Shown here: positions 1 to 54,055 of the stretch, in pieces
How the letters are laid out: each line of letters opens with the position of its first letter
Position numbering within the stretch: the first letter of the stretch is position 1
Assembly (NCBI GenBank): GCA_023247275.1
Contig: JAHFGT010000002.1
Span: forward strand, 25,961-89,960
Source: Candidatus Omnitrophota bacterium
GTDB taxonomy: Bacteria > Omnitrophota > Gorgyraeia > Aquiviventales > Aquiviventaceae
Length of the DNA stretch: 64,000 bases
Direction of reading: 5' to 3'
Notes under the pieces: model-generated
What the model was told of the DNA's origin: nothing
The model's database searches: none
The model's input: the letters and a program-made list of their open reading frames with translations, nothing else
Translations under genes and position numbers: made by a program

Positions 1-500
1 GCGATCAATCCAGTCAGCCGGGTCGGCGATAATCGGTGGTCTGGCGCTCCGATCAACACGTCACCGCCACTGACCGTGACATGGGCATGGCCTGGCTCGA
101 GCTCCACCCCGAAGATCACCCGTGCTAACGCCACCCGCTCGGCTGGGATCAACGCGGTCAGCGCCTCATAGTTGCCCAGGCCATTCTGAAACCCGCAGAC
201 CAACGTTGATGGTCCGACGAGGGTCGCGACAGCCTCAGCCACTTCAGCCGTTTGGTGGGCCTTCACGCACACAAAAATCCAGTCGAACGGCACAGCGGAC
301 GGTAATTGGTCGTGCTGGGTCGTGAGCGTCACTCCGGTGATTCGATGCTCCCCCCACAACCCACTGATGCGCAGTCCGTCGCGGCGGATGGCGTGCAGAT
401 GCCACTCCCGACCCAAGAACGTCACATCGTGATTGGCGCGTGCCAACAACCCGCCCAAGACACTGCCGATCCCGCCAGCGCCATACACCAGAATCCTCAT
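1..500 (-). CDS. panE: 2-dehydropantoate 2-reductase (ApbA/PanE family), 3' end runs off the window
   Basis: My own minus-strand translation from ATG at 500-498 gives MRILVYGAGGIGSVLGGLLARANHDVTFLGREWHLHAIRRDGLRISG... The Rossmann GxGxxG N-terminus is typical of ketopantoate reductases. It is absent from the ORF track because it has no stop inside the window. Confidence 0.7.
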   Translation of the reverse strand, partial: MRILVYGAGGIGSVLGGLLARANHDVTFLGREWHLHAIRRDGLRISGLWGEHRITGVTLTTQHDQLPSAVPFDWIFVCVKAHQTAEVAEAVATLVGPSTLVCGFQNGLGNYEALTALIPAERVALARVIFGVELEPGHAHVTVSGGDVLIGAPDHRLSPTRLTGLI

Positions 501-522
501 TGGACAAAAATGGAACAAGATA

Positions 523-606
523 TTCGTATACAGGTGCACGGGTGAACAGGTGTACCGGTTGCTCCATGAACCTGTACACCCGTACACCCGTTCACCGGTT
601 CACCAA
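523..606. repeat. Palindromic element built of 8-bp TG(T/A/C)ACNGG units (family 1, copy a)
   Basis: ATTCGTATACAGGTGCACGGGTGAACAGGTGTACCGG ... CCTGTACACCCGTACACCCGTTCACCGGTTCACC. The arms are arrays of the same octamer in opposite orientation. Related copies lie at 13979-14043, 46677-46776 and 53978-54055. Confidence 0.8.
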
Positions 607-617
607 TGCTCGGCAGA

Positions 618-1265
618 TTAGGCAGCTCCTACCAATCTGAGAAAACGCTGCAACGTCGTAGCGGCCAGAAACGGGTTGTGCTGTTTCTCGCGCCCCAAGA
701 GAACGGTGACCTCTGGCGCATAGTGATGCCCAGGACAGAGCACCGTCTGATCATCCAGTTGGCGTAACCGTTGGCTCAGACTCTCGTACAACTGTGTGGG
801 ACTGCCGCCTGGTAAATCACACCGGCCGCAGGAACCGATAAATAAGGTGTCGCCTGAGAGTAATCGATCCCGGACCAACAAACACTGGGAGCCTGGCGTA
901 TGGCCAGGGGTGTGCAGCAGTCGCACCGGCAGCGTGCCAATGGTCACCTCATCGCCACCCCTCAGCGGCTTGCGCGCCGACGAACTGATCTCCACCAGGG
1001 GAGCATCATGCTGATTCACGTAGACTGGGATGTCGACGGCGTGCAACAGCTCAGACAAGCCCATGACATGGTCAAAGTGGTGATGCGTGACAAACGCCTT
1101 GGTCAATCGATAGCCATCCTGCTGCGCGGTCGCCAGAATCGTCGGAACCTCCCACCCTGGGTCGATGACCGCGGCCTCGCGCGTCGCCGGATCACCGATG
1201 AGATAGATGAAGTTCTGCATCGGGCCCAATTCCAGTTGTTTGAAATAGATATCTGATTCGCTCAT
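618..1265 (-). CDS. MBL-fold metallo-hydrolase (glyoxalase II-like)
   Basis: 215-aa ORF with the THHHFDH zinc-binding motif, followed by HTPGHTPGS and CPGH. Confidence 0.85.
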   Translation of the reverse strand: MSESDIYFKQLELGPMQNFIYLIGDPATREAAVIDPGWEVPTILATAQQDGYRLTKAFVTHHHFDHVMGLSELLHAVDIPVYVNQHDAPLVEISSSARKPLRGGDEVTIGTLPVRLLHTPGHTPGSQCLLVRDRLLSGDTLFIGSCGRCDLPGGSPTQLYESLSQRLRQLDDQTVLCPGHHYAPEVTVLLGREKQHNPFLAATTLQRFLRLVGAA

Positions 1266-1287
1266 GGGAGGTACTTTAGCACAACCT

Positions 1288-1368
1288 AGAGCTCAGAAGT
1301 CAGAGGACAGGGGTTGTCCATTTTGTCTGACCTCTGACCTCTGATTTCTGACCTCTGATTTCTGAACG
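1288..1368. repeat. Hairpin element built of 7-bp TCTGAYY units (family 2, copy a)
   Basis: AGAGCTCAGAAGTCAGAGGACAGG ... TCTGACC TCTGACC TCTGATT TCTGACC TCTGATT TCTGAAC GG, in the divergent region between 618-1265(-) and 1384-2574(+). The copy at 28373-28453 shares AGAGCTCAGAAG and the TCTGACCTCTGAACGG end. Confidence 0.8.
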
Positions 1369-1383
1369 GGATACAATGGTGGT

Positions 1384-2574
1384 ATGGCTGTTCCTCAAGT
1401 CCGCGTGTCCGCCGCAGCCGCCAAGCGGATCATCCACCACGACTGTTGGGTGTTCCGAGATGAGCTGCTCACTCGGGAGGTCCTGGCCGGCAATGGAGAA
1501 TCGGTCGAGCTGATCGACCCAACCGGACGGTTCTTGGCCCATGCATTCTACAACGCCCACTCGCACATCGCCGCTCGGGTCATCAGCCGGCAGCGCGATC
1601 AATCGATCGACCGCGCACTCATCGCCCAGCGGATTGAGCACGCGATCGCGCAGCGCCAACCCATCACCGGAACCACCGGCCGCCGGCTCGTGTTTAGCGA
1701 AGCTGACCAGTTGCCTGGGCTGATTGTCGACCAGTACGCGGATGTCGTGGTCCTGCAGAGCCGCACCGCTGGCATCGAGCGCTGGAAGTCCGCCGTCGTC
1801 GATGCGCTGCAAGCGCTGCTGCACCCTGCCGGAATCCTGGAGCGCAGCGACAAGGAGTTTCGAGACGAGGAAGGACTCCCCGTGCTGACGCAAGTGCTGG
1901 CCGGGCATGTCCCGGAACGAATCCTCATCGAAGAGGATGGGTTGCGGTTTCTGGTGGACCTGGTGCATGGACACAAGACCGGGTTCTATCTTGACCAGCG
2001 CGATACCCGCCGACTCGTCCGCCGGGCGGTGCGCCCTGGACACCGGGTCTTAGATGCGTTCGCCTATACTGGGGCGTTTGGAATCGCGGCCGCCGCTTCT
2101 GGCGCACAGGTCGTATGCGTTGAACAGCATGAGCCGCTGATTGCGCTGGCGAAGGAAAACGCCGCGCTTAATGGGGTTGAATCGCGCATGGAGTTCGTCG
2201 CCGGCGATGCGTTCTATTGGCTGGGAGCCAAAACCGACACCCGGGATCGATTTGATTGGGTGTTGCTCGACCCCCCAGCTCTCGCAAAGAGTAAGGCCGA
2301 CGTGGCGAAGGGACGAGAATCGCTGCACCGGGTGACCATGCATGGGCTTGCCCTGCTACCACCTGGCGGAATCGTCGCGCTGAGCGTCTGTACCTATCAT
2401 CTGCTCGGCCTTGCCGAAGAAATCTTGCGGATGGCCGCTGAGCGACGAGGGCTACGACTGCGGATGCGCGGGGTGTCGTTGCAAGCCGGTGATCATCCGT
2501 GGATTCTGCAGATCCCCGCGACCCGGTACCTCATGACATGGTTCGCGCAGCACGACGGACCACCAGCGGCCTAA
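1384..2574 (+). CDS. rlmI: Class I SAM-dependent rRNA methyltransferase, RlmI-like (PUA-like N-terminus plus MTase)
   Basis: 396-aa ORF with SAM-binding VLDAFAYTGAFG and LLDPPA (motif IV). It is the only convincingly coding gene on the + strand. Confidence 0.75.
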   Translation: MAVPQVRVSAAAAKRIIHHDCWVFRDELLTREVLAGNGESVELIDPTGRFLAHAFYNAHSHIAARVISRQRDQSIDRALIAQRIEHAIAQRQPITGTTGRRLVFSEADQLPGLIVDQYADVVVLQSRTAGIERWKSAVVDALQALLHPAGILERSDKEFRDEEGLPVLTQVLAGHVPERILIEEDGLRFLVDLVHGHKTGFYLDQRDTRRLVRRAVRPGHRVLDAFAYTGAFGIAAAASGAQVVCVEQHEPLIALAKENAALNGVESRMEFVAGDAFYWLGAKTDTRDRFDWVLLDPPALAKSKADVAKGRESLHRVTMHGLALLPPGGIVALSVCTYHLLGLAEEILRMAAERRGLRLRMRGVSLQAGDHPWILQIPATRYLMTWFAQHDGPPAA

Positions 2575-3559
2575 TCCACCACGCGAGCCCGCTCAGCAGC
2601 AACGTCACCACGTACGAACACAGCAACCACAACAGCGCAGCCGTCACACCCACCACCGGTTGCGCGACTCCCTGCTGAACCAGCAACATCACCACCGCAT
2701 CCTTGGTGCCGATCCCAGCTACCGACACCGGAATCAAACGCGCGGCGACTCGGCTGAGGGCGGCGATTCGGCACACCAGCAGAAACGGCAACACGATGCC
2801 CATCGAACGCAGGACGCTATGGAGTTGAAGAAACAGCAGACTAAACGCGATCAGAGACAAGATCAGCGGGCCGATCATCTGGGGGGCCGCCAAGTGGCGC
2901 ATCCCAGACCAGAATTCGGTCAAATCCACCTGCCATGGCGAGAGCTTCTGCCACCGCTTGGTCAGCCGACGCAAGGAAAACACCCACAACGCGATTCCAA
3001 TCGAGACCAGGAGGACCGCCGTCAGGCTAAACCCGACCATCTGCTTCACGCCATGGAGAAACGAGACCTGGGCCAACAGCGGCAATCCCCAGATTCCAAA
3101 TCCAATGATGGCGATCCAGCCCAGCATCTTCTTCATGACCACGCTGGATAACGCATATCCGAGCGTGAGGCCGGTATCCATTGTAATGTACCCAGCCGAC
3201 AGATAGCTGCCCACATGCCAGGGAGTGACCAGACCAAGATACATGCTGGCCAGGTACGCGGTCACAGCTTTCCCGTATGGATAGCGCACCCCCTGCATGA
3301 GGATCAACCAGTACCAGACGCTGGCCTCGAGCAGCAGCTGCAACATCGTCAATAACATGCAGAGTCCGAGCCAGCGGACATCGATTCGGGAGAGCTGGAC
3401 CTCTTTAGAGGTGGGCACCGTCAGCGCTAAGAGCACCAGTAGCGCCACGACGCCGACAAATCGCAGCCACCACACCAGTGAACCTCGGATCGGCTTGCGA
3501 TACTGGACCGGCGGACGGGCGAGGACGTGTACTGGAGGAACAGATGATCGTGGAGGCAT
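2531..3559 (-). CDS. Polytopic membrane protein, flippase-like / UPF0104 (LPG-synthase TM-domain family)
   Basis: 342-aa ORF with about 8 hydrophobic helices and a basic N-terminus. The start is uncertain. It converges on the rlmI-like gene and overlaps it by 44 nt. Confidence 0.55.
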   Translation of the reverse strand: MPPRSSVPPVHVLARPPVQYRKPIRGSLVWWLRFVGVVALLVLLALTVPTSKEVQLSRIDVRWLGLCMLLTMLQLLLEASVWYWLILMQGVRYPYGKAVTAYLASMYLGLVTPWHVGSYLSAGYITMDTGLTLGYALSSVVMKKMLGWIAIIGFGIWGLPLLAQVSFLHGVKQMVGFSLTAVLLVSIGIALWVFSLRRLTKRWQKLSPWQVDLTEFWSGMRHLAAPQMIGPLILSLIAFSLLFLQLHSVLRSMGIVLPFLLVCRIAALSRVAARLIPVSVAGIGTKDAVVMLLVQQGVAQPVVGVTAALLWLLCSYVVTLLLSGLAWWIRPLVVRRAARTMS

Positions 3560-3656
3560 GGGGGGAAATTACACGGCGGCTGGTCGTGCACCCAGACTCA
3601 GACCAGGAAGCGCGAACCAAGCCGCCGTGCACAAACTCACTGAACCACAGATACGG

Positions 3657-4205
3657 TTACTGCGTTGTTGCGGGTGTTGATTGCGTCGTCGAGCTAGCCG
3701 CAGGCGTTGTTGATGTTGCCGACGGAGCCGCTGGTGCTGACGACGATGACGGCTGAGACGATGGAGCTGGAGCAGACGACGTCGGCGCTGGTGCAGACGG
3801 CATCATCGGTGCGGCGGCTGGAGCGGCGGTCGAAGAGCTTGACGGTGCCGGAGTCGCGCTGCCGACCTTCACGCTGACCGCATGCCGCTTGGCGGTATTG
3901 ACATCGAAGTTGTATTCGACTTCAACCGGCGTGCCACCGGTCAACTTTGAGGTATCCGCCGGTGCATCGCCCTGCAGGATCTTGGTCTGCTGCCCCAAGT
4001 AGATCGGCGTCTCAAAACCGTACCGGTCCTTGACCTTGAGCAGCGGAGCTGTTGGATCGTTGGAGTCAATCGACACCACCTCTCCCTTGATCAACAAGGT
4101 GGGTAACGCCTTTGGCTCCTCGGCGGACACGGCTGCTGCCGGCAGACTAGCCGCCACGAGCATTCCTACCATCCATGGAGCAATACGAGCCTTCATCCTA
4201 CTCAC
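3657..4205 (-). CDS. Secreted protein with Ser/Pro/Ala/Thr-rich C-terminal tail
   Basis: Signal peptide MSRMKARIAPWMVGMLVAASLPAAAVSA, then a roughly 100-aa globular part, then about 60 aa of low complexity (SSSSTAAPAAAP...TTQSTPATTQ). Confidence 0.6.
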   Translation of the reverse strand: MSRMKARIAPWMVGMLVAASLPAAAVSAEEPKALPTLLIKGEVVSIDSNDPTAPLLKVKDRYGFETPIYLGQQTKILQGDAPADTSKLTGGTPVEVEYNFDVNTAKRHAVSVKVGSATPAPSSSSTAAPAAAPMMPSAPAPTSSAPAPSSQPSSSSAPAAPSATSTTPAASSTTQSTPATTQ

Positions 4206-4260
4206 CTCCTTTTAAGCGCCTAGGCGCATTCTAAGCAGTATAGCAGGCACCACTGGGTTG

Positions 4261-5484
4261 TCAACTGACGCTGAGCCGCCTGAACTGGCGCCCAACCTGC
4301 AGGACCCCCTCGCACTGCGCCGCAGGGACGGATGATCGGCTGACCACCTCGCCGTTCAGCTTCACAGCACCCTGCCGCAGCAGTCGCCGAGCCTCATTGT
4401 TGGTGTTGGCGATCCCGGCGTTGACCAACAGCTCCACCACGTTCACCGAGCTGTCAGCGGCGCGAACCGTGAGCGTTGGCATCTGGTCAGGTGGTTGCCG
4501 TTGGCTGAACTGCCGAATAAATGCTTCACGTGTCTGTTGGCCAACCGCGGGGCTGTGATAGCCCGTGACGATTTCAGTGGCCAGTTCGAGTTTAGCGTCG
4601 CGTGGATTGATCGCTCGCGAGTTCAGCTCCTGTTCAAGCTGCTGCAATCGCGCGGGTGAGACATCGGTCAGCAAGGTGAAATATTTCATGATGAGCGGAT
4701 CTGGGATCGACATCAGCTTGCCGAACATCTCCCCTGGCGGCTCGGTGAGTCCAATGTGGTTGCCCAGCGACTTGGACATTTTCTGGACCCCGTCGGTTCC
4801 TTCGAGCAGCGGCATGGTGATCACGACCTGGGGCGGCTGACCGTAGGCACGCTGCAGGTCACGTCCGACGAGCAGGTTGAACTTCTGATCGGTGCCGCCT
4901 AGCTCAACATCCGCCTTCAGATGGACCGAGTCATACCCTTGCATCAGCGGGTAGAACAGCTCGAGCATGCTGACCTCTTGCCCTGAGCCCAACCGCTTGC
5001 GGAAATCGTCCCGCTCGATCAACCGAGCCACCGTGTATTTCGACAGCAGCTCCAACAGCTTCCCAAATGCAAATGGAGCCAGGCCAGCAGATGGGTCACC
5101 GAGAAACCAGTCACGGTTGTTGACCCGCAGGAAGACGTCCGACTCCGAACGCAGCAGACGCGTGACTTGCTGCTCATAGGTATGGGTGTTGCGCTCGACC
5201 TCCTCAGACGTCATCAACTTGCGCATCTTGGATTGGCCTGACGGATCGCCAACCAACGCGGTCGCATCGCCGATGAGGAAGACCACCCGATGACCGAGGT
5301 CTTGGAACTGGCGCAGCTTGCGCAGGAGAACGGTGTGGCCGAGATGGAGGTCTGGAGCGGTCGGATCAAACCCGGCCTTGATCGCCAGCGGGCGACGCAG
5401 AGCGAGTTTCTCGCGCAAGTCCGCCTCGGTGATGATCTCGGCGGTTCCTCGGCGGATGGTCTCAAGCGCGCTGGCAAGATCCAT
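4261..5484 (-). CDS. tyrS: Tyrosine--tRNA ligase
   Basis: 407-aa ORF with class I HIGH (DLHLGH) and KMSKS motifs and a C-terminal S4-like domain. Confidence 0.95.
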   Translation of the reverse strand: MDLASALETIRRGTAEIITEADLREKLALRRPLAIKAGFDPTAPDLHLGHTVLLRKLRQFQDLGHRVVFLIGDATALVGDPSGQSKMRKLMTSEEVERNTHTYEQQVTRLLRSESDVFLRVNNRDWFLGDPSAGLAPFAFGKLLELLSKYTVARLIERDDFRKRLGSGQEVSMLELFYPLMQGYDSVHLKADVELGGTDQKFNLLVGRDLQRAYGQPPQVVITMPLLEGTDGVQKMSKSLGNHIGLTEPPGEMFGKLMSIPDPLIMKYFTLLTDVSPARLQQLEQELNSRAINPRDAKLELATEIVTGYHSPAVGQQTREAFIRQFSQRQPPDQMPTLTVRAADSSVNVVELLVNAGIANTNNEARRLLRQGAVKLNGEVVSRSSVPAAQCEGVLQVGRQFRRLSVS

Positions 5485-5535
5485 GCGCGTTACGCGTTCG
5501 ACCCGTCCGGGTGGCAGGATACGGGCACAGCGTGG

Positions 5536-7167
5536 TTACGAACCCGCCGGCTGATCCTCGGAAGGCCCGCCTGCCTCTCCGGACTCAGCGCGAGCAGGCA
5601 GGTTCTTGTTGCTCAAGCCGATCTTGCGCTCGATCTCGTCGAGCTTGATGACTTGGGCTTTGACCTTGGTGCCGACTTTGTACCGGTCGTCTAACCGCTC
5701 GTTGGCGTCAAGCTCAAGCTCTGACAGATGCATCAACCCTTCAACATCCTTGGCGATTTCCACGAACAAGCCAAAGCCAGCGACCTTGGTGACGACGCCC
5801 TCGACGACCGAGCCGAGTGAGAATCGCTGGATCAATTCCGGCCACGGATCTGGCATGAGCTGCTTCATGCCCAGCGTGATCCGATGGTTGTCCGGCTCGC
5901 AACTGAGAATGGTGACATCAACCATCTTACCCTTCTTGAGCACCTCAGAGGGATGGTTGATTTTCCGAGTCCAGGAAATATCCGAATTGTGCAACATGCC
6001 TTCGAGCCCATCTTCCAGCTCGATGAAGGCGCCGTAGTCGGTCAGTTGGCGGACTCGGCCAACGACACGGGTGCCGGCTTGATACTTGTCTTTCGCCTGC
6101 TGCCACGGATCCCCGGCCGCCTGGCGCATCCCCAGCGACAGCCGCTGGTTCTTCGCATCAACCGCCAGCACGACCGCCTCGATCTCCTGCCCGACCTGGA
6201 GCAGCTCTGACGGATGGGCGATCCGTTTTGACCACGACAGCTCGGAGATGTGCACCAGCCCTTCAATGCCTGGCTCCACTTCAACGAATGCGCCGTACGG
6301 CACTAAATTGACCACGCGGCCTTTGATCTTGGTGCTCACAGGATACTTCTCTTCTGCGTGTTGCCACGGGCTGGGGAGCAGCTGCTTGAGGCCAAGGGAC
6401 ACCTTGTTCGCTTGGCGATCAACCGACAAGACCACAACGTCAAGCTGCTGTCCGACCTGGAGCACATCAGACGGATGACCAATCCGACCCCACGAGATAT
6501 CGCCGATGTGCAGCAACCCATCGATCCCGCCCAAGTCGATAAACGCGCCGAAGTCGGTGAGGTTCTTGACCGTGCCGCTGCGCCGCTCGCTGACCGTCAG
6601 CGACTCGATCAGATTCTTGCGCAACTGATCTTTTTCGCGCAACAGATAGTCCCGGTGCGAGACGACGATGTTCTTGCGCGCGCGGCTGATCTTCAGGATG
6701 ATGAATTTCAGCGGCTGGGTGATGAGCGTATCAAGGTTGGCATACCCCTTGTACGACGCGAGCGAGGCGGGCATAAACGCTTCGATTCCAATATCAACCA
6801 TCAAGCCGCCTTTGACCTTGCGCACCGGCCGGCCGTCGATGATATCGCCTTCTTTGAAATTATTGACGATCCGGTCCCACCCCTTCTGGCGGTCGGCTTT
6901 GTGCTTCGAGAGGATGACCATGCCCTGTTCATCCTCGATATTTTCAACGAAGACCTCGACCTCGTCGTCGACCTTCAGGTTGGGCACGTCGCTGAACTCG
7001 GAACGGTTGATCGATCCCTCGGACTTGAATCCGATATCGACCACCACGTCTTGCGGCGACACGGCGATGACTCGGCCTTTCACGATCTGCCCTTCTGTGA
7101 TGACGCGCAAGCTCTGCGCGTACAACTCAGAAAGGGTTGTGGAACCTTCTTCAACTTGTGCGGTCAT
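5536..7167 (-). CDS. rpsA: 30S ribosomal protein S1
   Basis: 543-aa ORF made of six repeated S1 domains (repeated G.V..V...GAF(V/I)(D/E)(L/V) patterns). Confidence 0.95.
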   Translation of the reverse strand: MTAQVEEGSTTLSELYAQSLRVITEGQIVKGRVIAVSPQDVVVDIGFKSEGSINRSEFSDVPNLKVDDEVEVFVENIEDEQGMVILSKHKADRQKGWDRIVNNFKEGDIIDGRPVRKVKGGLMVDIGIEAFMPASLASYKGYANLDTLITQPLKFIILKISRARKNIVVSHRDYLLREKDQLRKNLIESLTVSERRSGTVKNLTDFGAFIDLGGIDGLLHIGDISWGRIGHPSDVLQVGQQLDVVVLSVDRQANKVSLGLKQLLPSPWQHAEEKYPVSTKIKGRVVNLVPYGAFVEVEPGIEGLVHISELSWSKRIAHPSELLQVGQEIEAVVLAVDAKNQRLSLGMRQAAGDPWQQAKDKYQAGTRVVGRVRQLTDYGAFIELEDGLEGMLHNSDISWTRKINHPSEVLKKGKMVDVTILSCEPDNHRITLGMKQLMPDPWPELIQRFSLGSVVEGVVTKVAGFGLFVEIAKDVEGLMHLSELELDANERLDDRYKVGTKVKAQVIKLDEIERKIGLSNKNLPARAESGEAGGPSEDQPAGS

Positions 7168-7708
7168 GGAGTTGCTCCTCCAGACGGCGCCACTGATGGG
7201 TCACAGCATCGGCAAGCTGTGCCTGGGAGAGGCGTGACGCGCGCCCTTGAATGCGTTGTGCAGAACCTGTAGTATAGGAGATCATCGGTCCGAACGCAAC
7301 CCGAATCTTGGTCGGTTTGGGCCAGCGGGCATTCGGGGGCCAGGCGGCAAAGGTGCCGTGCACATAGACTGGAACCACCGGGACCTGAGCCGAGATCGCC
7401 AGCACGCCAACGCCTCGCTTCGCGGTACCGAGCTGGCCGGTGAGTTGCCGACCACCTTCGGGAAAAATCGCGACGACCTCTCCGCGCCGCAGCCGGGTAA
7501 TCGATTCGCGGATCGCCGGCAGATCGGCCTGCTCGCGCAGCAGCGAAATCGCCTCCACGCGACGCAAATACCATCCTAAGATCGGTTGCTTGAACAAACT
7601 GGCCCGTGCCATGAAATTGATTCGACGCGGGCACGCGGCGCCCAAGAGCGGCGGGTCGAGAAAGCTGACATGGTTACAGGCCAAGATGACGCCCCCGGCC
7701 TTCGGCAC
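7151..7708 (-). CDS. plsC: 1-acyl-sn-glycerol-3-phosphate acyltransferase (start probably further upstream, up to about 7843)
   Basis: The ORF from GTG 7708 carries NHVSFLDP (HX4D) and FPEGG motifs. The expected N-terminal helix YRFSKFVLWLIFHAGFGLEVRG is encoded upstream in the same frame, but no ATG/GTG/TTG precedes it (see findings). Confidence 0.8.
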   Translation of the reverse strand: MPKAGGVILACNHVSFLDPPLLGAACPRRINFMARASLFKQPILGWYLRRVEAISLLREQADLPAIRESITRLRRGEVVAIFPEGGRQLTGQLGTAKRGVGVLAISAQVPVVPVYVHGTFAAWPPNARWPKPTKIRVAFGPMISYTTGSAQRIQGRASRLSQAQLADAVTHQWRRLEEQLHDRTS

Positions 7709-7752
7709 ATGCTGCTGACCACGGACTTCAAGACCGAAGCCGGCGTGGAAAA

Positions 7753-8505
7753 TCAGCCAGAGGACGAACTTCGAGAAGCGATACGTGGCCTGGTTCTCCG
7801 ATAGGGCCTGGCGTGAGTTGCGAAGCCTGACCGATGGCGGAATCGTTGCTGGATATGGTGCAACATGGCTCGAACGACTTGCTGGGCGGTGAAACGGGAT
7901 GTATCAATCACCGTCGCACCGGTTGGCTTCATCAGCGGGCCGACGCGGCGGTGACGATCCAGCCCATCACGGAAATGGAGCTGCTCCTGCACCTGCACGA
8001 TCGGCGGCCGAGTTCCGTACAGCTCGGCCAGCTCGATCTGGCGACGCTTGGCGCGCACACGGGTATCCGCGTCGAGAAAAAACTTGATCGGGGCCTGAGG
8101 AAACACCACCGAACCCGTGTCACGCCCTTCGGCCACTACCCCGTGTCGATTCGCCAGCTCGCGCTGCAGCTGGACCATCGCAGCCCGGATAGCAGGATGC
8201 TGGGAGACTTGGGCAGCCGCCTCTGAGACTTCTTCGGTGCGGATCGCTTTGGTCACATCACGGTCATTGAGGAGGACGACCAGCCCACCGGCTGGTGTTG
8301 GACGAAGCTCGAGCGGCAGCCGACGCGCCAATTCAGCGAGTCGTTTGACATCGGTAATCGGATTGATCCGCTGGCGGAGCGCGGCATAGGCCAACGTTCG
8401 GTACGTGGCGCCGGTGTCCAAATACATCAGCCCCAGCGCCTTCGCGAGCAACTTGGCGACGGTGCTTTTGCCAACACCGGCCGGACCGTCGATCGTGACG
8501 ATCAT
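7753..8505 (-). CDS. cmk: Cytidylate kinase
   Basis: The P-loop start MIVTIDGPAGVGKST lies at 8505, inside ORF 7753-8715. The product is 250 aa. The last 30 or so codons overlap the upstream frame of plsC. Confidence 0.9.
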   Translation of the reverse strand: MIVTIDGPAGVGKSTVAKLLAKALGLMYLDTGATYRTLAYAALRQRINPITDVKRLAELARRLPLELRPTPAGGLVVLLNDRDVTKAIRTEEVSEAAAQVSQHPAIRAAMVQLQRELANRHGVVAEGRDTGSVVFPQAPIKFFLDADTRVRAKRRQIELAELYGTRPPIVQVQEQLHFRDGLDRHRRVGPLMKPTGATVIDTSRFTAQQVVRAMLHHIQQRFRHRSGFATHARPYRRTRPRIASRSSSSG

Positions 8506-8524
8506 CCCGCCGACCCCAGGCGAT

Positions 8525-9373
8525 CTAGCGTGGTTCGAATCCATCGCGCCGGCGTTTCGCAGCCTGCAACATCGCCAAGAGCGCTGCGCGATCGTTTCGC
8601 GTGATGCTGTCTCGTAGCCGGGCCCAGTGTCGCTCAAATCGCCGCATGGCCGCCAACAGCTCGTGTCGATTACTGAGGAAGATATCATCCCATAACTCAG
8701 GATCGCTGGCCGCAATCCGGGTCATCTCGAGCAGGCTGCGCGGCGGCTGTGGTAACGACCTCGCATGAGCCGTTTGAGCCAGGCAGTTGGCAACCACATG
8801 CGGCAAATGGCTCGTCACAGCCAGCGCTTGGTCGTGCGCCTGCGGACTCATGGTGAGCACCTTCACGCCCAGCGCCCTCCAGAAACGTCCAACGCGCTGC
8901 ACCGCTGATCGATCGGTCCGCGACGTCACGGTCAAGACGCACAGGGTTCCGTCGAACAGTGCTGCGTTGGCCGATTCAACCCCTCGCTGCTCTGACCCGG
9001 CGATCGGATGAGCGCCGACAAACCGGATGTGATCCGGCAGCGTGCGCTCAAGCCGTCGCACCAGCGCGGCTTTGGTGCTGCCGACGTCGGTGAGAATCGC
9101 GCCCGCTTGAATCGCACGCGCCGCGCGTTCAGCCAGCGGCGCGATCGTATCAACCGGTGTGGCGAGCACGACCAGCTCTGCGTCGCGCACGCCCGTTTCG
9201 AGATCGGTTGTTCCCCCATCAATGACGCGTCGGCGCCGCGCCGTTCGTAGCGTCTGCGCATGCCGACTCACGCCGACCACGCGTCCAGCCAGCCGTCGGC
9301 GCTTGATCGCCATTCCCAGCGACCCGCCAATGAGCCCCAGACCAACGATCGTCACTCGCCGAAAAATAGTCAA
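8525..9373 (-). CDS. tyrA: Prephenate/arogenate dehydrogenase
   Basis: 282-aa ORF with NAD-binding VTIVGLGLIGGSLG and a TyrA-family pattern. It sits next to other aromatic-pathway genes. Confidence 0.85.
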   Translation of the reverse strand: MTIFRRVTIVGLGLIGGSLGMAIKRRRLAGRVVGVSRHAQTLRTARRRRVIDGGTTDLETGVRDAELVVLATPVDTIAPLAERAARAIQAGAILTDVGSTKAALVRRLERTLPDHIRFVGAHPIAGSEQRGVESANAALFDGTLCVLTVTSRTDRSAVQRVGRFWRALGVKVLTMSPQAHDQALAVTSHLPHVVANCLAQTAHARSLPQPPRSLLEMTRIAASDPELWDDIFLSNRHELLAAMRRFERHWARLRDSITRNDRAALLAMLQAAKRRRDGFEPR

Positions 9374-9404
9374 CCTCTTTCCTGTCTTGGTTGCAACTGA
9401 CTGC

Positions 9405-10007: not shown

Positions 10008-10134
10008 GCCGTACCTCCATGGTAAGAGATCTTCTCGCAACAGGTCTCGCCGATTCACCGGCGCCACTGCTCTCGCAGCCAGGCGACTGACACCACCAGA
10101 GAGGGTGGATCGCTGTTGCCCGGCTGGTACAGAT

Positions 10135-10802: not shown

Positions 10803-10831
10803 GATCTGGCGTGTTCCTGACAGTCCGCGTC

Positions 10832-11709: not shown

Positions 11710-11717
11710 GGGATAAT

Positions 11718-11736
11718 GTTATCATCATATGATAAC
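11718..11736 (-). promoter_or_regulatory. Putative operator: perfect 8-3-8 palindrome upstream of the HTH gene
   Basis: GTTATCAT-cat-ATGATAAC lies 9-27 nt upstream of the ATG at 11709, inside an unusually AT-rich patch (GGATAATGTTATCATCATATGATAACTTATTACC). Confidence 0.5.
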
Positions 11737-11807
11737 TTATTACCAGCGCTTTCGAACCGCAGCGCCTGATCAACGTCTCGCGTGTCACTGGTCAGGTGTC
11801 ACGCGGT

Positions 11808-12824: not shown

Positions 12825-12855
12825 GGATTCCCTCCTCGTCGGCAATCGGTCGGCG

Positions 12856-13953: not shown

Positions 13954-13978
13954 GCCTTAGAACACCTCGCTTTTCTTT

Positions 13979-14043
13979 GTGAACGGTTGACGGTGTACGG
14001 TGTACAGGGTCAGTACCGTACACCGTGAACTGTACACCGTCCA
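13979..14043. repeat. Octamer-unit palindromic element (family 1, copy b)
   Basis: GTGAACGGTTGACGGTGTACGGTGTACAGGG tcag TACCGTACACCGTGAACTGTACACCGTCCAC, between pheA and hisC. Confidence 0.75.
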
Positions 14044-14060
14044 CTCTCGGCCAACTATGC

Positions 14061-15819: not shown

Positions 15820-15840
15820 GACCCCTCCACAGAAAATTCT

Positions 15841-15904
15841 CGGTGTGCGGTGTGGGGGATGCGGTGTAGGAAAACACGCCGCACACCTCTCACTCCACAC
15901 CGAG
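15841..15904. repeat. Hairpin element built of 7-bp CGGTGTG units (family 3)
   Basis: CGGTGTG CGGTGTG GGGGATG CGGTGTA GG aaaa CACGCCG CACACCT CTCACTC CACACCG AG. The right arm overlaps the last codons and stop of scpA. Confidence 0.75.
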
Positions 15905-17626: not shown

Positions 17627-17960
17627 GAGACAGGAGACCGGAGACTACATGCGCCCCCAAAGGCACTGTAACATTCTGGGCGCATGTACCCTGAGCGAAG
17701 TCGAAGGGTAACCCCTCGACGCGCTTTGCTTGCTCGGGGTAAAGGGAACCCTCTCGATGTTCAGATGCAATGTGGGTTCCATTTAGAGACCAGACACACC
17801 ATCGGGGGGCACGCAGGAAGGACACGCGTCTCACCACGTCTTCATAGCAGACCAAGATGACACATGCAGGGCAAGACCAGAGCAACCATAGAGCTGTTAC
17901 GCCGTCGATCTTCCAGAACTTGTCTTTTTTAAGTCTCCGGTCTCTGGTCTCCGGTCTGAT
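17627..17960. repeat. Composite element: inverted GAGACNG heptamer arrays flanking a 285-bp hairpin-rich spacer
   Basis: The left array is GAGACAG GAGACCG GAGACTA (17627-17647). The right array is GTCTCCG GTCTCTG GTCTCCG GTCTGAT (17933-17960). Internal stems are ACATGCGCCC/GGGCGCATGT (17647-17687), CCCTGAGCGAAGTCGAAGGG/CCCCTCGAC..GCTCGGGG (17689-17739) and GGAACCC/GGGTTCC. Confidence 0.75.
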
Positions 17961-17961
17961 A

Positions 17962-22157: not shown

Positions 22158-23879
22158 CTACGACGATGCAAAGTTGTCAAGCAGTTTATGGATTTGCGCC
22201 GGGAGGAGCTCCTCGCTGACCCGTTGTTTTTCCTTCGTGGCGCGCAGGCACAGTTCCAGTTGGCGCGCTTGTTGCCATGCCTTGCCGACGACCACCTGCA
22301 CCGGAATTCCGACCAGGTCAGCGTCCTTAAGCTTGCTCCCTGGCGATTGGTCCCGATCGTCCAGCAGCACCGCCAGTCCGGCGTGGGATAACTGCTGCTC
22401 AACCCGCTCGGCCACCTGAACCGCTTCGGCGTTTTGCGTGTCCATGATGCTCACGATCACCTCCATGGGGGCTAAGGCACGCGGCCAGACAATCCCCTGC
22501 TCATCATGGTGTTGCTCAATCGCGGTCGCCACGATCCGGTTCATCCCGATGCCGTAGCACCCCATCATCATCGGCTTGAGTTGCCCGGCCGGATCCTGAA
22601 ACACCGCACCCAGCGCTTGACTATATTTCGTGCCCAACTTGAACACATGACCGACTTCGATCGTGCGCACAAACGTGAGTGGGCCGCTGCAGGTTGGGCA
22701 CCTGTCCGCCTCGGTCACGACCCGAACATCCGCCACGATCGATGGCTGGAAATCCCGTCCTGGATTGACGTTGGTGTGATGCGCGTCGGTGATATTCGCC
22801 CCGGTCACCGCGTTGACGACCCCCATCACCGCATGATCGGCGATCAACCGCACATTCAGCAACTTCACCGGCCCGGCAAACCCGACCGGGGCGCTGGTCA
22901 GTCGCTCAATCGTTTGGGCGCTCGACAGCCGAATGTCGGGCGATCCAATCGCACGCGCGAGCTTGGCTTCATTGACTTCATGGTCTCCGCGAACCAACAC
23001 CGCCACATGGCCGTTGTCCACATCATAGACCAGCGTCTTGATCAACTGCCTCGCTGGCACCTTGAAGAACTGGCTGACCTGCTCGACCGTGTGCTGCCCT
23101 GGCGTCTTCACCGTCTCCATCGGCTGTTGGACTTCTGCTGTCTGCTGTCTGCTGTCTGCTGTCTGCTGGTACCTCGCCGCCTCCAGATTCGCCGCATAGC
23201 CGCAGGTCTGGCACTGCACCACCCGGTCTTCGCCATACGCTGACGGCGCCATGAACTCGTGCGATACCTCCCCACCCATCATGCCTGGATCCGCCTCGCA
23301 CGCCAGCACAGTCAGCCCGCATCGCCTGAAGATCCGGTGATAGGCGTCAGACATGATCTGGTAGCTGCGATTGAGGCCATCGACGTCCACATCAAAGCTG
23401 TAGGCGTCTTTCATCAGGAATTCTTTGGAACGGATAATCCCAAACCGGGGACGAGGCTCATCGCGGAACTTGTGTTGGATCTGGTACACCGTCATCGGCA
23501 ACTGCTTGTACGAACGGACCTCTTTGAGCAAATCGGTGACCACTTCCTCGTGCGTCGGGCCCAGCGCCACCTCTTTGCCGGTGCGATCCTTGAACCGGAT
23601 CAGCACATCGCCCAGCACGCTGTACCGGCCGGTCTGTTTCCACAACTCCACCGGCTGCATCGCCGGCATCAACAGCTCCTGGGCCCCGGCCTGGTCCATC
23701 TCCTCGCGCACGACGGCCGCCGCCTTGTGCAACGCGCGCAACCCCAACGGCAGGTAGGTGTACGCCCCAGCGCCCAGCCGGCGGATCAATCCAGCCCGCA
23801 TCATCAGCTTATGGCTGATCGCCTCAGAGTCCTTCGGGTCCTCGCGTAGCGTCGGCAGAAAGTAGTGTGACCAGCGCAT
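22158..23879 (-). CDS. proS: Proline--tRNA ligase (bacterial type with INS editing domain)
   Basis: MRWSHYFLPTLREDPKDSE... begins at ATG 23879. It has class II motifs and an editing insertion. The ORF track starts 3 codons earlier, at GTG 23888. Confidence 0.95.
   Translation of the reverse strand: MRWSHYFLPTLREDPKDSEAISHKLMMRAGLIRRLGAGAYTYLPLGLRALHKAAAVVREEMDQAGAQELLMPAMQPVELWKQTGRYSVLGDVLIRFKDRTGKEVALGPTHEEVVTDLLKEVRSYKQLPMTVYQIQHKFRDEPRPRFGIIRSKEFLMKDAYSFDVDVDGLNRSYQIMSDAYHRIFRRCGLTVLACEADPGMMGGEVSHEFMAPSAYGEDRVVQCQTCGYAANLEAARYQQTADSRQQTAEVQQPMETVKTPGQHTVEQVSQFFKVPARQLIKTLVYDVDNGHVAVLVRGDHEVNEAKLARAIGSPDIRLSSAQTIERLTSAPVGFAGPVKLLNVRLIADHAVMGVVNAVTGANITDAHHTNVNPGRDFQPSIVADVRVVTEADRCPTCSGPLTFVRTIEVGHVFKLGTKYSQALGAVFQDPAGQLKPMMMGCYGIGMNRIVATAIEQHHDEQGIVWPRALAPMEVIVSIMDTQNAEAVQVAERVEQQLSHAGLAVLLDDRDQSPGSKLKDADLVGIPVQVVVGKAWQQARQLELCLRATKEKQRVSEELLPAQIHKLLDNFASS
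23135..23169. repeat. Five tandem CTGCTGT heptamers inside proS (coding strand CAGCAGA)
   Basis: CTGCTGT x4 plus CTGCTGG, translated as QQTADSRQQTAE in a variable ProRS linker. The same unit recurs in kdsB (57810-57837). Confidence 0.85.
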
Positions 23880-28372: not shown

Positions 28373-28453
28373 GTCAGATGTCACAGGACAGAGCTCAGAA
28401 GACAGCAACACCTCACTCTGATCTCTGACCTCTACCTTCTGACCTCTGAACGG
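28373..28453. repeat. Heptamer-unit hairpin element (family 2, copy b)
   Basis: GTCAGAT GTCACAG GACAGAG CTCAGAA GACAGCA ... CTCTGAT CTCTGAC CTCTACC TTCTGAC CTCTGAA CGG, between dxr and cdsA. Confidence 0.8.
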
Positions 28454-31522: not shown

Positions 31523-31583
31523 ACCAAATCCCAAATTCCAAGTACCAAAGAAGCCCCAAATTCCCAACACCAATGACCAAACG
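31523..31583. repeat. Array of degenerate 7-bp CCAAATN units (family 6)
   Basis: CCAAATC CCAAATT CCAAGTA CCAAAGAAGC CCCAAATT CCCAACA CCAATGA CCAAACG, downstream of purA. Confidence 0.7.
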
Positions 31584-31599
31584 TCGGGTTGGTGCTGGG
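31563..31599 (-). terminator. Possible purA terminator hairpin
   Basis: The minus-strand RNA has an 11-bp stem, CCCAGCACCAA ...15 nt... UUGGUGUUGGG, followed by the U-rich AAUUUGGGGCUUCUUUGG. It lies 12 nt after the purA stop. Confidence 0.45.
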
Positions 31600-31610
31600 T
31601 ACGTGTCAAA

Positions 31611-44403: not shown

Positions 44404-46019
44404 CAGCGACGCTGGCAGCTCAGCCGAAATTCCACCAGCTCCTCGTTCGTGCCGACCCGTCGGGTCGACCCTAGCTGCACATCACGGCACAGGCTGGACT
44501 GCTCGAGCCACAAGGCAAAACTGGAGACGGTCGAATCTGGGGTCTGCTCGCGTCCCTGCGCTTCGCCGGTCATGGCCACGCGCCCGTCGGGCTGAATGGC
44601 TAACGAGGCTAACCGCACCGCGCTGGGAAATCCCTGCGCCAGTCGCCGAAACCACGAGGGTGGGATTCCGTGCGCAGTGACTAATTGCTCCATGAGATGC
44701 GTGTGATGCTCGATCGTGTGCTGCAGCGTCACCAGCGGCTGGATGGCAATCCACCGATCGTTGACCGCTGCCAATTGTCGACTCATCCGGTGCGCTTGGA
44801 TCCCCTGCCAACCAAGACCCAACCACAGCCCCACCGTCAGGACCATGAAGAGCGCGCTGAGCAGCGCCGCAACGCGCCACCATTGTCGTCGCTGGCGAAA
44901 CAGCGGCATGTGCAAATCTAACTCGCTCGGACGACCCAGCAGCGCCAATCCGCACGCGACAGCAGCAGCCGCACCTGCGGCGCCGACCAATGGTTCGCAC
45001 GACAGTCGCGTCACCGGCACGCCAAGCTGTTGAGCAAACCAGCGATCGCTGTGTGGAATCCGCGACCCATCCCCACTGATCAGCAGACGCTGTGGCAGCG
45101 TTGACACGGTGGTCTGCGCACCAAACGTCATGGTCCGGCGCAGCTCACTGACCAGCTGCTCAAGGATGGGCTGAAGGATTGAGAAATACATCGTGGCCGA
45201 CACCTGACCGCCAACCCCCTCGAAGGACATCGATTCCGCGACCCCAGCCTCGGCTGACAGCGGCACAGAGGGTTGCGGGCTCGCCGGCAGACCGAGCCGC
45301 TCAATCAATGTCGCCGCCTCGGCGAGGGAGATGGAGCCTCCGCCTTGATCGGCAAGCCCGTGCACCAGCGCCTCGCAGACATGGCGCATCCCCAGGCTCA
45401 CGTCCCGGGCATAGATCGGTTCGCCGGAATCGACCAACACCATGGTCGTGCGCTCGCCGCCCATCTCCATCATCACCATCGCGTCCTTGTCCACAACGCC
45501 AAGGGTTTTACCGACCGTGACCAGAGCGACGGCCGACGGCACGACAGCGCTGGGAATCCACCCAGCCTGCCACAGCGCCTCGAGCTGCTGCTGCAGCGCA
45601 GCTTGTTCGCACGCGGCCACCACGACATCGCATTCCAGCTGGTCGGCCATCCGCTGCTGGCGTCGCAGTTGGAACGCGACCTGTCCCTGTTCAGCGTCAA
45701 ACGGCAACAGGGGAGGCAACCGGTCCTGCACCGCGGCGGATAATTGGCTTGGCTCATCGATTCGCACGGTCACGCTCCGAATCAACCCCAGCGGTGCTGC
45801 CAGGACGATCTGGGCCGTGAGCCGATCCCGCCGCAGCGGCTGGAGCAGCCTGGCCAGCCGCTGAGCGATCGCATCCGAATCAGCCACATCATTCAAGGCT
45901 TGCTCGCCATACCACCATCGCCGCCGGCCCTGGTGTTCGATGAGTTGGGTGACCCGCACCGCCATCGGGCTGAATTCGATTCCAATCCGCACCCGGGGAG
46001 TGTGCATGGAATGAATCAC
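44403..46019 (-). CDS. PilM-PilN fusion (GspL-like) assembly protein
   Basis: 538 aa with an N-terminal actin-like PilM domain of about 350 aa, a TM helix (WWRVAALLSALFMVLTVGLWLGLGW), and a PilN-like periplasmic part. The GTG start overlaps the upstream stop (GTGA). Confidence 0.7.
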   Translation of the reverse strand: MIHSMHTPRVRIGIEFSPMAVRVTQLIEHQGRRRWWYGEQALNDVADSDAIAQRLARLLQPLRRDRLTAQIVLAAPLGLIRSVTVRIDEPSQLSAAVQDRLPPLLPFDAEQGQVAFQLRRQQRMADQLECDVVVAACEQAALQQQLEALWQAGWIPSAVVPSAVALVTVGKTLGVVDKDAMVMMEMGGERTTMVLVDSGEPIYARDVSLGMRHVCEALVHGLADQGGGSISLAEAATLIERLGLPASPQPSVPLSAEAGVAESMSFEGVGGQVSATMYFSILQPILEQLVSELRRTMTFGAQTTVSTLPQRLLISGDGSRIPHSDRWFAQQLGVPVTRLSCEPLVGAAGAAAAVACGLALLGRPSELDLHMPLFRQRRQWWRVAALLSALFMVLTVGLWLGLGWQGIQAHRMSRQLAAVNDRWIAIQPLVTLQHTIEHHTHLMEQLVTAHGIPPSWFRRLAQGFPSAVRLASLAIQPDGRVAMTGEAQGREQTPDSTVSSFALWLEQSSLCRDVQLGSTRRVGTNEELVEFRLSCQRR

Positions 46020-46711
46020 GGGATTCGAATCGCAACAGACGACCGCATGGATTGACTCGCCTGACCTGCCTCAAACACGCCATTGCCGGTTTGCACGACC
46101 ATCGCCACATCAACGCGGCGGATCGCCGGATCAGGGGGGCAGGCCGGCGTCAGCAACGCACCGGCCTGATTGCGATACTGAAACATCGGACCTGACGCCA
46201 GCACGCGGGCGCTGCCCAGCGCGTCATACGGCACCAGCTCCTCGGTCGGCCCGGCCGGCACGCTGGCACACGTGGTCCCAGCCGGCACCAACGCCCGCGC
46301 AAGAGCCGCGTTGATCGTGTTCAGGCGCACCAGCACCAGTTGGCCATCAGAGCTCACATATCCCACCCGAACATCCTCGGTCAGCCACAGCGCCGGTTGA
46401 AGCCCGGTCCCGCCGAGCGGCACCCGGCGGATCGCAAAGCGCAAACCACGGATAGGATCAGCCTGGCCTGGCAGCGTCGAGAATCCCCCTTCGATCAGTT
46501 GCTGCATCACCTCAGCGGCGACATGGTCGGTGGCAACCGCCTTGGGCACAAATACCAGTGTCCGCACGCCGAAGAGAATGATTGGCGGTACCAAGGCAAA
46601 CAGCACTCCGGCAATCACCAGCACGAGCACCAGCTCTGGTAAGGTCCATCCCCCTTGACATCGACCGGCAAGAACTGATTCGTGTACGGGTGAACAGGTG
46701 TACGGGTGCAC
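46016..46711 (-). CDS. Minor (pseudo)pilin; start uncertain
   Basis: Class III signal ...RCQGG|WTLPELVLVLVIAGVLFAL, with Glu at +5. The nearest in-frame canonical start is GTG 46711, inside repeat 46677-46776. The ORF track starts at 46822. Confidence 0.6.
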   Translation of the reverse strand: MHPYTCSPVHESVLAGRCQGGWTLPELVLVLVIAGVLFALVPPIILFGVRTLVFVPKAVATDHVAAEVMQQLIEGGFSTLPGQADPIRGLRFAIRRVPLGGTGLQPALWLTEDVRVGYVSSDGQLVLVRLNTINAALARALVPAGTTCASVPAGPTEELVPYDALGSARVLASGPMFQYRNQAGALLTPACPPDPAIRRVDVAMVVQTGNGVFEAGQASQSMRSSVAIRIP

Positions 46712-46776
46712 GGGTCGTCGATCCGCAGGTGTTGGCGATCCGTCCACCTGTTCACCGGTACACTTGTTCACGAATC
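46677..46776. repeat. Octamer-unit palindromic element (family 1, copy c) with terminal inverted repeats
   Basis: GATTCGTGTACGGGTGAACAGGTGTACGGGTGCACGGG ... CCACCTGTTCACCGGTACACTTGTTCACGAATC. The first 32 nt are identical to the copy at 53978. Confidence 0.8.
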
Positions 46777-46826
46777 GAGTTCCCTGGGAAGCAGGGCCCT
46801 GCCTGCGAGAGGACCATCGCATAGCG

Positions 46827-53977: not shown

Positions 53978-54055
53978 GATTCGTGTACGGGTGAACAGGT
54001 GTACGGGTGGTCATTCGCAGCTGAACAACCCGTACACCTGTACACCCGTTCACGG
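53978..54055. repeat. Octamer-unit palindromic element (family 1, copy d)
   Basis: GATTCGTGTACGGGTGAACAGGTGTACGGGTGG ... CCCGTACACCTGTACACCCGTTCACGG, between kdsD and kdsC. Confidence 0.8.

Follow-up and report, generated by a model that had tools for sequence, protein, structure and literature searches.

We analysed a 64,000-nucleotide stretch of DNA (the window) from a metagenome-assembled genome (MAG) of Candidatus Omnitrophota, a non-cyanobacterial host, in which paired arrays of tandem 7- and 8-mers recur at the ends of genes. The window has a GC content of 0.60–0.63 (61% GC is given for the genome), and the named relatives of its Dxr (65–68% identity) all carry the label Candidatus Omnitrophota or Omnitrophica. 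Its genes are housekeeping genes, nearly all on the minus strand, and occur in runs including uppS-cdsA-dxr-rseP-ispG-proS-rimP-nusA-infB-trpS-scpA-scpB, pheA-hisC and kdsD-kdsC, together with kdsB; the window gave no tRNA genes and no Rfam match at the gathering score. Each arm of the elements is a short tandem array of 3–5 units of 7 (sometimes 8) nt, and each unit comprises a 5–6-nt core plus 1–2 variable positions. The loops between paired arrays span 1–40 nt, and up to 285 nt, and at least six unrelated unit sequences occur within the 64-kb window, with dozens over the clade.

The original prediction described a general architecture with unrelated units in a GC-rich, non-cyanobacterial genome, which holds, and a tandem-repeat check of the sequence found arrays at every position that it listed. 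It missed the commonest family, that of the 8-mer GTGNACNG. Dispersed families of imperfect palindromes in the 64 kb comprise three GTGNACNG copies (A, F and G below) with a 7-mer relative (C), and two copies of TCTGAYY (B and E). The elements are listed below with fold energies or z scores against shuffled sequences.

530..604: hairpin A, 8-mer GTGNACNG, ~3.5 units per arm; −46.4 kcal/mol on the minus strand, z −6.1
1288..1368: hairpin B, TCAGAGG/TCTGAYY, the element originally reported; −41.4 kcal/mol, z −5.4
13979..14044: hairpin C, 7-mer GTGWACG; z −3.4
15839..15904: hairpin D, CGGTGTG; −44.7 kcal/mol on the plus strand, −36.6 kcal/mol on the minus strand
17933..17957, minus strand: pair H, 5′ arm on the gene strand, GAGACNG array beginning 4–5 nt past the infB stop codon
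17621..17645, minus strand: pair H, 3′ arm, GTCTCNG array running through the trpS start codon (..GTCTCATGTCTGA..)
23134..23168, minus strand: unpaired array of five CAGCAGA units in proS, 100% matches, encoding QQTADSRQQTAE
28373..28453: hairpin E, a B-family copy in decayed form; z −0.9 and −1.4
31523..31603: one-sided array of ~8 CCAAATN units (NNTTTGG on the gene strand), adjoining a short hairpin; z −1.6 and −2.0
46677..46776: hairpin F, 8-mer GTGNACNG, 41-nt arms; −67.2 kcal/mol on the plus strand, −49.9 kcal/mol on the minus strand
53982..54054: hairpin G, 8-mer GTGNACNG; z −8.7 and −8.9
57734..57835: paired arrays I, GGAGACT x4 and GTCTGCT x3.6, inside kdsB (57503..58321, minus strand)

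We counted tandem arrays of at least three copies and at least 80% identity in the window and in 50 dinucleotide-preserving shuffles of it. Period-7 arrays were enriched (8 observed vs 0.22 expected), as were period-8 arrays (3 vs 0.30) and, to a smaller degree, period-6 arrays (6 vs 2.3), with period-4 and period-5 arrays at chance level. These results confirm a real pattern, one specific to periods 7 and 8. An inverted-repeat scan (arms of at least 20 nt, at least 75% complementary, loop of at most 40 nt) returned seven repeats in the window, five of which have arms of period 7 or 8. Similarly, GTGNACNG doublets gave 18 matches vs 1.1 expected, and although intergenic DNA makes up only ~5.8% of the window, periodic arrays are contained in 8 of the 23 gaps of at least 40 nt.

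RNA folding of the segments 522-612, 1280-1375, 13972-14050, 15832-15910, 46670-46782 and 53975-54060 gave structures that were strong relative to shuffles (z −3.3 to −8.9); the folds of 28365-28460 and 31515-31612, which contain hairpin E and the CCAAATN array, were weak. In the stems of all folded elements a single mismatch recurs every 7–8 nt. The mismatches are regularly spaced because each arm homogenises its own unit variant, turnover within an arm being faster than compensation between arms. Hairpins D (15841-15903) and G (53983-54053) also gave sub-threshold Rfam matches to animal microRNA-precursor models (E-values 0.015–0.06), which are matches to generic long imperfect hairpins and not to homologues.

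Hairpin B fills the 118-nt divergent spacer between 618..1265 (minus strand) and the rlmI-like gene 1384..2574 (plus strand), and it ends in TCTGATTTCTGAACGG. About four units on either side of a short loop had been proposed for it; the arrays are indeed paired, but the arms are unequal, with ~3–4 degenerate units on the left and six on the right, and the right arm contains a perfect 14-nt x2.4 duplication lacking in the left. Elements B and E had further been said to share both termini: the left 12-mer AGAGCTCAGAAG is common to the two (2 matches vs 0 expected), but the right 16-mer TCTGACCTCTGAACGG is found only at 28438-28453, in hairpin E. Hairpins F and G are identical over their first 32 nt, and in G the T and A unit variants are ordered differently in the two arms.

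Three of the proposed hairpins had to be reassigned. The GAGACNG arrays at 17621-45 and 17933-57 do not form a short-loop hairpin, their arms lying ~285 nt apart; CAGCAGA at 23134-68 is a lone array inside proS; and CCAAATN, placed at 31523-83, is a one-sided array. The GGAGACT and GTCTGCT arrays at 57734-57835 are paired, and their location is inside kdsB, where they encode a KdsB loop ~15–19 amino acids longer than in solved KdsB structures. Only the antisense strand gives a strong hairpin here (−53.7 kcal/mol on the plus strand, −30.0 kcal/mol on the minus strand).

We then examined placement relative to gene ends, as the original prediction had proposed, for a set of 29 elements drawn from the window, from seven relatives and from one Acidobacteria contig. 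The median distance was 5 nt from the upstream stop codon to the element and 17 nt from the element to the next start codon. The upstream stop was at most 15 nt away in 25 of the 29 elements and at most 8 nt away in 19, and 25 of the 29 were nearer to the stop than to the start. Read on the gene strand, hairpins A, C, E and G begin 7–16 nt past a stop codon and end 16–29 nt ahead of the next ATG: A lies 13 nt past the stop of an MBL-fold hydrolase gene (618..1265, minus strand) and ~29 nt ahead of the following ATG, C 16 nt past the pheA stop and 25 nt ahead of the hisC ATG, E 7 nt past the cdsA stop and 17 nt ahead of the dxr ATG, and G 8 nt past the kdsD stop and 16 nt ahead of the kdsC ATG. 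The gene-strand 5′ arm of hairpin D overlaps the last codons and TGA stop of scpA, and its end is 16 nt ahead of the scpB ATG. Hairpin F lies in the 5′ part of the pseudopilin open reading frame (ORF) 46016..46822, with no in-frame start codon after the hairpin, and the array at 31523..31603 lies just past the purA stop, upstream of a promoter-like motif of ompA. Only B occupies a divergent spacer, the other intergenic elements of the window lying between co-directional genes, and two elements lie inside genes (kdsB and proS).

Fold strength did not favour the sense strand, which was better in 8 elements, worse than the antisense strand in 11 and equal in 9, and the sense fold was much weaker in elements that reach coding sequence or a ribosome-binding region. 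A sense-strand G-U asymmetry, which would be a sign of selection on the RNA, was looked for in these elements and was absent. Among periodic hairpins from the window, the relatives L124 and L138–L143, the Acidobacteria contig (L074) and others, the G-rich arm (G>C) comes 5′ in 31 of 38, compared with a 30:34 split among non-periodic hairpins of the same DNA; GC skew cannot cause this G-first bias because the property is identical on either strand. The hairpins mostly end before the ribosome-binding region, and at pheA-hisC the GAGGTG Shine-Dalgarno motif is outside hairpin C. Shine-Dalgarno-like motifs at −6 to −18 precede only 14 of the 53 gene starts in the window, so a test of Shine-Dalgarno sequestration has no power; the organism seems to use Shine-Dalgarno pairing rarely.

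We compared the window with ten syntenic loci from other Omnitrophota genomes (loci numbered L124 and so on), which are 66–76% identical over Dxr, ProS and NusA and form a star-like tree in which they are about equidistant. Period-7 or period-8 arrays were present in eight of the ten; none were found in L125 and L144, which are interspersed among array-rich genomes in the tree. The same junctions are occupied by arrays of different units. At cdsA-dxr the units are TCAGAGG in the window, GTCAGAW in L139, CGGAATG in L124, GCGACCN/GGTTGCT in L142 and CACNNAG in L138; at infB-trpS they are GAGACNG in the window and L138, CAGCAAC in L124 and GGGGCTC in L141. The purA-ompA, rimP-nusA and clpP-aminotransferase junctions are likewise reoccupied. 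Individual units also appear at different junctions in different genomes: GAGACYG occurs at infB-trpS in the window and L138 and at serA-purA in L142, and GGTTGCT at infB-trpS in L124 and at cdsA-dxr in L142. In one L124 element (9909-9975) the 5′ arm consists of CGGAATK units and the 3′ arm, read as its reverse complement, of CGGAGTG x3, so that AAT faces AGT with one mismatch per unit.

The same replacement is seen within a protein. In 8 of 11 Omnitrophota genomes a heptamer array encodes the hypervariable linker of ProS (approximately amino acids 236–252, flanked by CGYAANLEAA and VKTPGxHTVEQVS); the units differ and the length stays the same. These arrays lie at the following positions.

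Window, 23134-23168
L124, 15075-15111
L138, 14597-14617
L140, 17321-17354
L141, 5010-5040
L142, 16288-16326
L143, 14178-14205
L145, 14079-14112

Beyond Omnitrophota, the Acidobacteria gp4 MAG contig QHXQ01000048.1 (L074) carries six heptamer paired-array hairpins within 8 kb (2213-7195), with the units AGAGGTC, GAGTGAC, GTTTTCA and AGGTTCA, so that hardly any spacer of a minus-strand gene cluster is without one. TCTGAYY pairs are present in Deltaproteobacteria MAGs, and contigs labelled Verrucomicrobia, Patescibacteria and Nitrospirota yield isolated examples of paired arrays. A scan of a 596-Gb genome collection with TCTGAYYTCTGAACGG used too short a pattern, most of the 120 loci being chance matches and about eight real paired arrays; the latter were selected by the pattern and are uninformative on the frequency of the unit. 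Taking the chance loci as a control, paired-array elements are rare in ~0.85 Mb of otherwise random genomes. A metagenome scan with the 18-mer ACGGGTGAACAGGTGTAC, common to A, F and G, gave 11 matches, all of them chance matches in coding-like DNA.

The infB-trpS junction shows long-range pairing. In the window its spacer is 335 nt, and the arms 17933-57 and 17621-45 pair across ~285 nt in both the minimum free energy (MFE) and the centroid fold (−143.2 kcal/mol, z −4.2). In the window (17612-17966, minus strand), L138 (19894-20106) and L124 (20736-20912), an array 4–5 nt past the infB stop pairs, in the MFE and centroid folds, with a complementary array that holds the trpS AUG; the units are GAGACNG/GTCTCNG in the window and L138 and the unrelated CAGCAAC/GTTGCTG in L124. 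A search of the 335-nt spacer for known RNA families, including leaders and T-boxes, found none. The predicted helix suggests termination-dependent translation of trpS, and infB-trpS is the one case that looks functional.

The paired form had been thought undescribed, which was overstated, as it is known from Xanthomonas (PMC4692102) and Geobacter metallireducens (PMC2700814). In Xanthomonas (Rehm et al. 2015, PMC4692102) there are 70–75 cases per genome of two convergent, stem-loop-capable arrays of the heptamer GGGAATC, with four units preferred, located between aligned ORFs and with their function left open. The elements described here resemble these in their GC-rich non-cyanobacterial host, period of 7, ~4 units, opposite-strand arrays with the G-rich arm first, stem-loop capability, location between co-directional ORFs near gene ends and rarely between divergent ones, and position kept while unit number varies between relatives. 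They differ in that the Xanthomonas arrays use one G-tract unit read as a G-quadruplex former, whereas many units occur here, most of them without G tracts: TCTGAYY, GTGNACNG, GAGACNG and CAGCAGA lack runs of at least three G, and few units of the relatives have them (GGGGCGW in L142). Because most units lack G tracts, G-quadruplexes cannot explain a four-unit preference here. The 8-mers and long-range pairs are a further difference. In G. metallireducens (Aklujkar et al. 2009, PMC2700814), paired opposite-strand sites of three tandem TCTCCGTS[Y] or five tandem MTYCTGA heptamers occur between and within genes; their function is open, and they were interpreted as IHF/HU binding sites, a proposal made without a test. 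The likeness to Geobacter classes 2 and 3 extends to several unit families per genome, 3–5 tandem units of 7–9 nt on opposite strands at variable distance, and presence both in operon spacers (e.g. proB-proA) and within genes. The window units YYTCTGA/TCTGAYY and GTCTCCG are close, not identical, to the published consensus sequences MTYCTGA and TCTCCGTS, the only form in which they were compared, and the Geobacter sites are known only from supplementary alignments in the genome paper (PMC2700814).

Like REP (repetitive extragenic palindrome) sequences, BIMEs and REPINs of Enterobacteria and Pseudomonas, the elements are dispersed imperfect palindromes, extragenic, located typically between co-directional genes just past stop codons and able to form transcribed stem-loops. 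REPs stabilise upstream mRNA, and Liang, Rudd and Deutscher reportedly found in 2015 that REPs within ~15 nt of a stop codon stall the terminating ribosome. REPs measure 20–40 bp and share a conserved family sequence and the tag GTAG or CGTC (PMC3733652); RAYT transposases are associated with them. Unlike REPs, the arms described here are tandem 7/8-mers of variable unit number with no tag; the element ends read GATTCGTG, TTTGTGAAC, TCTCGGTG and AGAGCTCAG, none with a terminal GTAG or CGTC. The in-frame arrays in kdsB recall the palindromic elements that Ogata et al. are said to have described in 2000 inside protein-coding genes of Rickettsia, where an in-frame palindromic repeat forms an extra surface loop; those reportedly are a conserved family of 100–150 bp and not tandem heptamers. 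Cyanobacterial short tandemly repeated repetitive (STRR) sequences and TAACTGA repeats are similar in being tandem heptamers, mostly intergenic near start codons, patchily distributed and attributed to slippage, but they are essentially direct arrays, and their units and hosts differ. The STRR units of heterocystous cyanobacteria are CCCCAGT, TTGGTCA and CAACAGT, and the units of the window differ from these. MacGregor 2015 (PMC4679880) counted 169 direct sets and one inverted set, and listed heptamer direct repeats from cyanobacteria, Beggiatoaceae and Bacteroidetes. Further full-text literature searches gave no descriptions of paired heptamer arrays beyond those of Xanthomonas and Geobacter, and published work on the subject is sparse.

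With about even confidence, we interpret the elements as slippage-driven, REP-like simple-repeat palindromes that unconstrained DNA tolerates and that have here and there been co-opted. The arrays would arise and turn over through replication slippage in a 7-nt register; loops of 7 nt are too large for MutS. This length also matches a polymerase-DNA contact, as has been suggested in published work, and PMC4679880 and PMC4692102 cite Mrazek 2007 for the slippage idea for heptamers. The inverted partner could come from fold-back or template switching, or from an ordinary hairpin past a stop codon that grew on both arms, and ectopic copying would carry a unit family to new loci. Selection may merely trim damage to stop codons, ribosome-binding regions or proteins. 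Where transcribed, the elements are predicted to form stem-loops with energies from −25 to −69 kcal/mol that would tuck the inserted DNA away and, as with REP sequences, could block exonucleases acting from the 3′ end and impede a ribosome at termination. Some few elements might have been co-opted, as at infB-trpS, where the 5′ strand would lie within reach of a ribosome stopping at infB and the 3′ strand holds the trpS AUG; the helix would couple trpS translation to infB.

Slippage-type turnover is pointed to by the separate homogenisation of the arms and the resulting periodic mismatches, by the duplication confined to one arm of hairpin B and by the arm variants of L124 9909-9975. The arrays occupy DNA free of coding or translation constraint, namely spacers and disordered protein linkers, and tolerance is supported by the filling of gaps, the KdsB loop, the ProS linker, post-stop placement, patchy distribution and the lack of a sense-strand bias. 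Copying of families is supported by the 32-nt identity of F and G, the 12-mer of B and E and the excess of GTGNACNG doublets.

Several observations weigh against this interpretation. Unit cores are kept at orthologous sites, GAGACNG at infB-trpS (window and L138) and TCTGA at cdsA-dxr (window and L139), at ~70–74% identity over Dxr, ProS and NusA, a divergence at which neutral DNA should be randomised. A 7-nt period within the proS reading frame cannot turn over by single-unit slippage, and the model does not predict the strand-invariant G-first bias. Furthermore, three metagenome contigs of the same population from the European Nucleotide Archive (ENA), 99.96–99.98% identical, showed no unit-number variation or indels in the elements. 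Nor was any instance of slippage, template switching or copying seen directly.

The main rival, which we regard as plausible yet on balance unlikely, is that the elements are RNA devices, intercistronic stem-loops kept by selection, whose base lies within the footprint of the terminating ribosome and which would join stop and start, protect the 3′ end of the upstream cistron or gate translation of the next gene, the tandem units permitting several pairing registers and tuning by unit number. The tight post-stop placement (median 5 nt; at most 8 nt in 19/29) fits such a device, as does the element hugging the stop even in long spacers (purA-ompA, four genomes), the presence of arms at both spacer ends (infB-trpS in three genomes, AT-serA in L140) and the occupation of the same junctions with different units in many genomes. 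The G-first bias is a property that an RNA would feel, and the non-periodic cdsA-dxr helix of L143 likewise joins stop and start. Terminal pairing of long spacers also exceeded that in shuffles (194 vs 115 pairs), but this end-to-end excess is modest, weak for any single spacer and missing from 6 of 18. The sense strand has no folding-energy advantage, the arm variants go uncompensated, leaving periodic mismatches, and elements are also found in a divergent spacer (B) and within genes; two relatives have no arrays, and tight spacers do the same job. A more specific form of the idea, which we consider doubtful, makes paired arrays a sequence-independent, evolvable operon device by which upstream termination gates downstream translation: the 5′ strand would sit in the footprint of the terminating ribosome and the 3′ strand would end at or cover the next start, the 7-nt build would supply slippable registers so that coupling is tuned by unit number, and the G-first rule would be part of the mechanism. 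Its prototype would be the infB-trpS helix, found with two unrelated units in three genomes ~70–74% identical over Dxr, ProS and NusA.

Copying by a transposase encoded elsewhere, which would make the arrays non-autonomous mobile elements similar to REPINs or MITEs (miniature transposable elements with inverted repeats), also seems improbable. The 32-mer and 12-mer termini that recur unchanged at distant loci and the GAGACYG and GGTTGCT units at different junctions in different genomes are what such copying into new spacers would leave, and the in-frame arrays of kdsB resemble the Rickettsia palindromic elements. TCTGAYY-type pairs occur in unrelated phyla and a similar Geobacter unit, MTYCTGA, has been reported, but the cross-phylum matches were picked by our own search pattern, and the 18-mer scan of the metagenome collection turned up no member of the GTGNACNG family. 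The inverted repeat takes up the entire element, inspection of the flanks revealed no target-site duplication, the GTAG/CGTC tag typical of most REPs (PMC3733652) is missing, and unit number and order differ between the arms of copies, which are therefore not simple transposition products. Arrays acting in the DNA, as binding sites for a nucleoid-associated protein or global regulator (cf. IHF/HU in Geobacter) or by cruciform extrusion, would account for strand symmetry, fixed-period direct repeats in inverted pairs at variable distance, presence within as well as between genes and conserved unit cores at some orthologous sites, and head-to-head binding could produce the orientation bias. We judge this very unlikely, since at least six unrelated units in 64 kb and dozens over the clade would need many proteins, units are replaced at orthologous sites, no protein is known to bind the arrays, and the Geobacter analogue is an untested proposal. 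Rho-independent transcription termination is suggested by stable hairpins just past stop codons and is extremely improbable. A scan of 1-20000 (A to D and pair H) gave no whole-element stem with a T run, its single within-element match being a stem of 6 bp at the tip of B; on inspection no T run is seen at E, F or G, and canonical terminators were rejected on this lack of hairpin-plus-T-run structures at the elements. Moreover, most elements sit in conserved operons ahead of essential genes without room for a promoter (e.g. cdsA-dxr-rseP-ispG), and the canonical-looking hairpin nearby, at 53357-53422, is non-periodic.

Other candidates were set aside, as any purine-rich unit fits them loosely. 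These are stop codons in all three frames, a property of TCTGAYY that is not general, Chi-like arrays, HutP-type NAG-N4 binding and CTGACC boxes of −35 type, for which a promoter scan was at chance level.

Further features were observed. The 53357-53422 hairpin is a perfect 25-bp stem right after the kdsC stop, followed by TTTTT on the plus strand and flanked on the left by GGAAATCG x2.2; it is the sole canonical-looking terminator seen near the elements. In L143 the cdsA-dxr spacer (9891-10001) has no tandem units and consists of perfect palindromes nested in one another; the 16-bp helix that closes them (CCCCCCACCTCTTTGC / GCAAAGAGGTGGGGGG) abuts the stop and start codons. Upstream of ompA, most Omnitrophota loci have the conserved promoter-like motif CTTGACG..N..TATGTTAGGGTAA (window ~31400-31450, minus strand; L124 ~6960-7000; also L138, L139, L125 and L142–L145), and the hairpins at purA-ompA are located between it and the purA stop. 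Inserted between ispG and proS (24010-24566, minus strand) is a small toxin-antitoxin pair, one protein being Doc/Fic-like (motif HPFIDGKKRTA) and the other, of 49 amino acids, AbrB/MazE-like; the same junction holds PemK/MazE genes in L124 and L142. Within the pseudopilin-like gene cluster, 48243-49150 is a 483-bp tandem duplication (1.9 copies, 94% identical). Public assemblies include a 37-amino-acid ORF called across hairpin E (L122 5273-5386, corresponding to window ~28355-28468), and mechanical ORFs have over-long N-termini across A (244..579) and F (46016..46822).

In many prokaryotes no long simple repeats are more over-represented than heptamers, and their paired form had been noted only in passing. 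Our results show that the paired form is tied neither to one unit nor to G-quadruplexes, that a candidate phylum has it, as do contigs labelled Acidobacteria, Deltaproteobacteria, Verrucomicrobia, Patescibacteria and Nitrospirota, and that paired arrays recur at the same operon junctions and in one protein linker among genomes that have diverged deeply. In practice, the elements yield spurious small ORFs and inflated gene starts in annotations, as at hairpins E, F and A. Why the unit is 7 nt, and whether the hairpin is selected or tolerated, become questions that can be tested with existing metagenomes and simple reporters.

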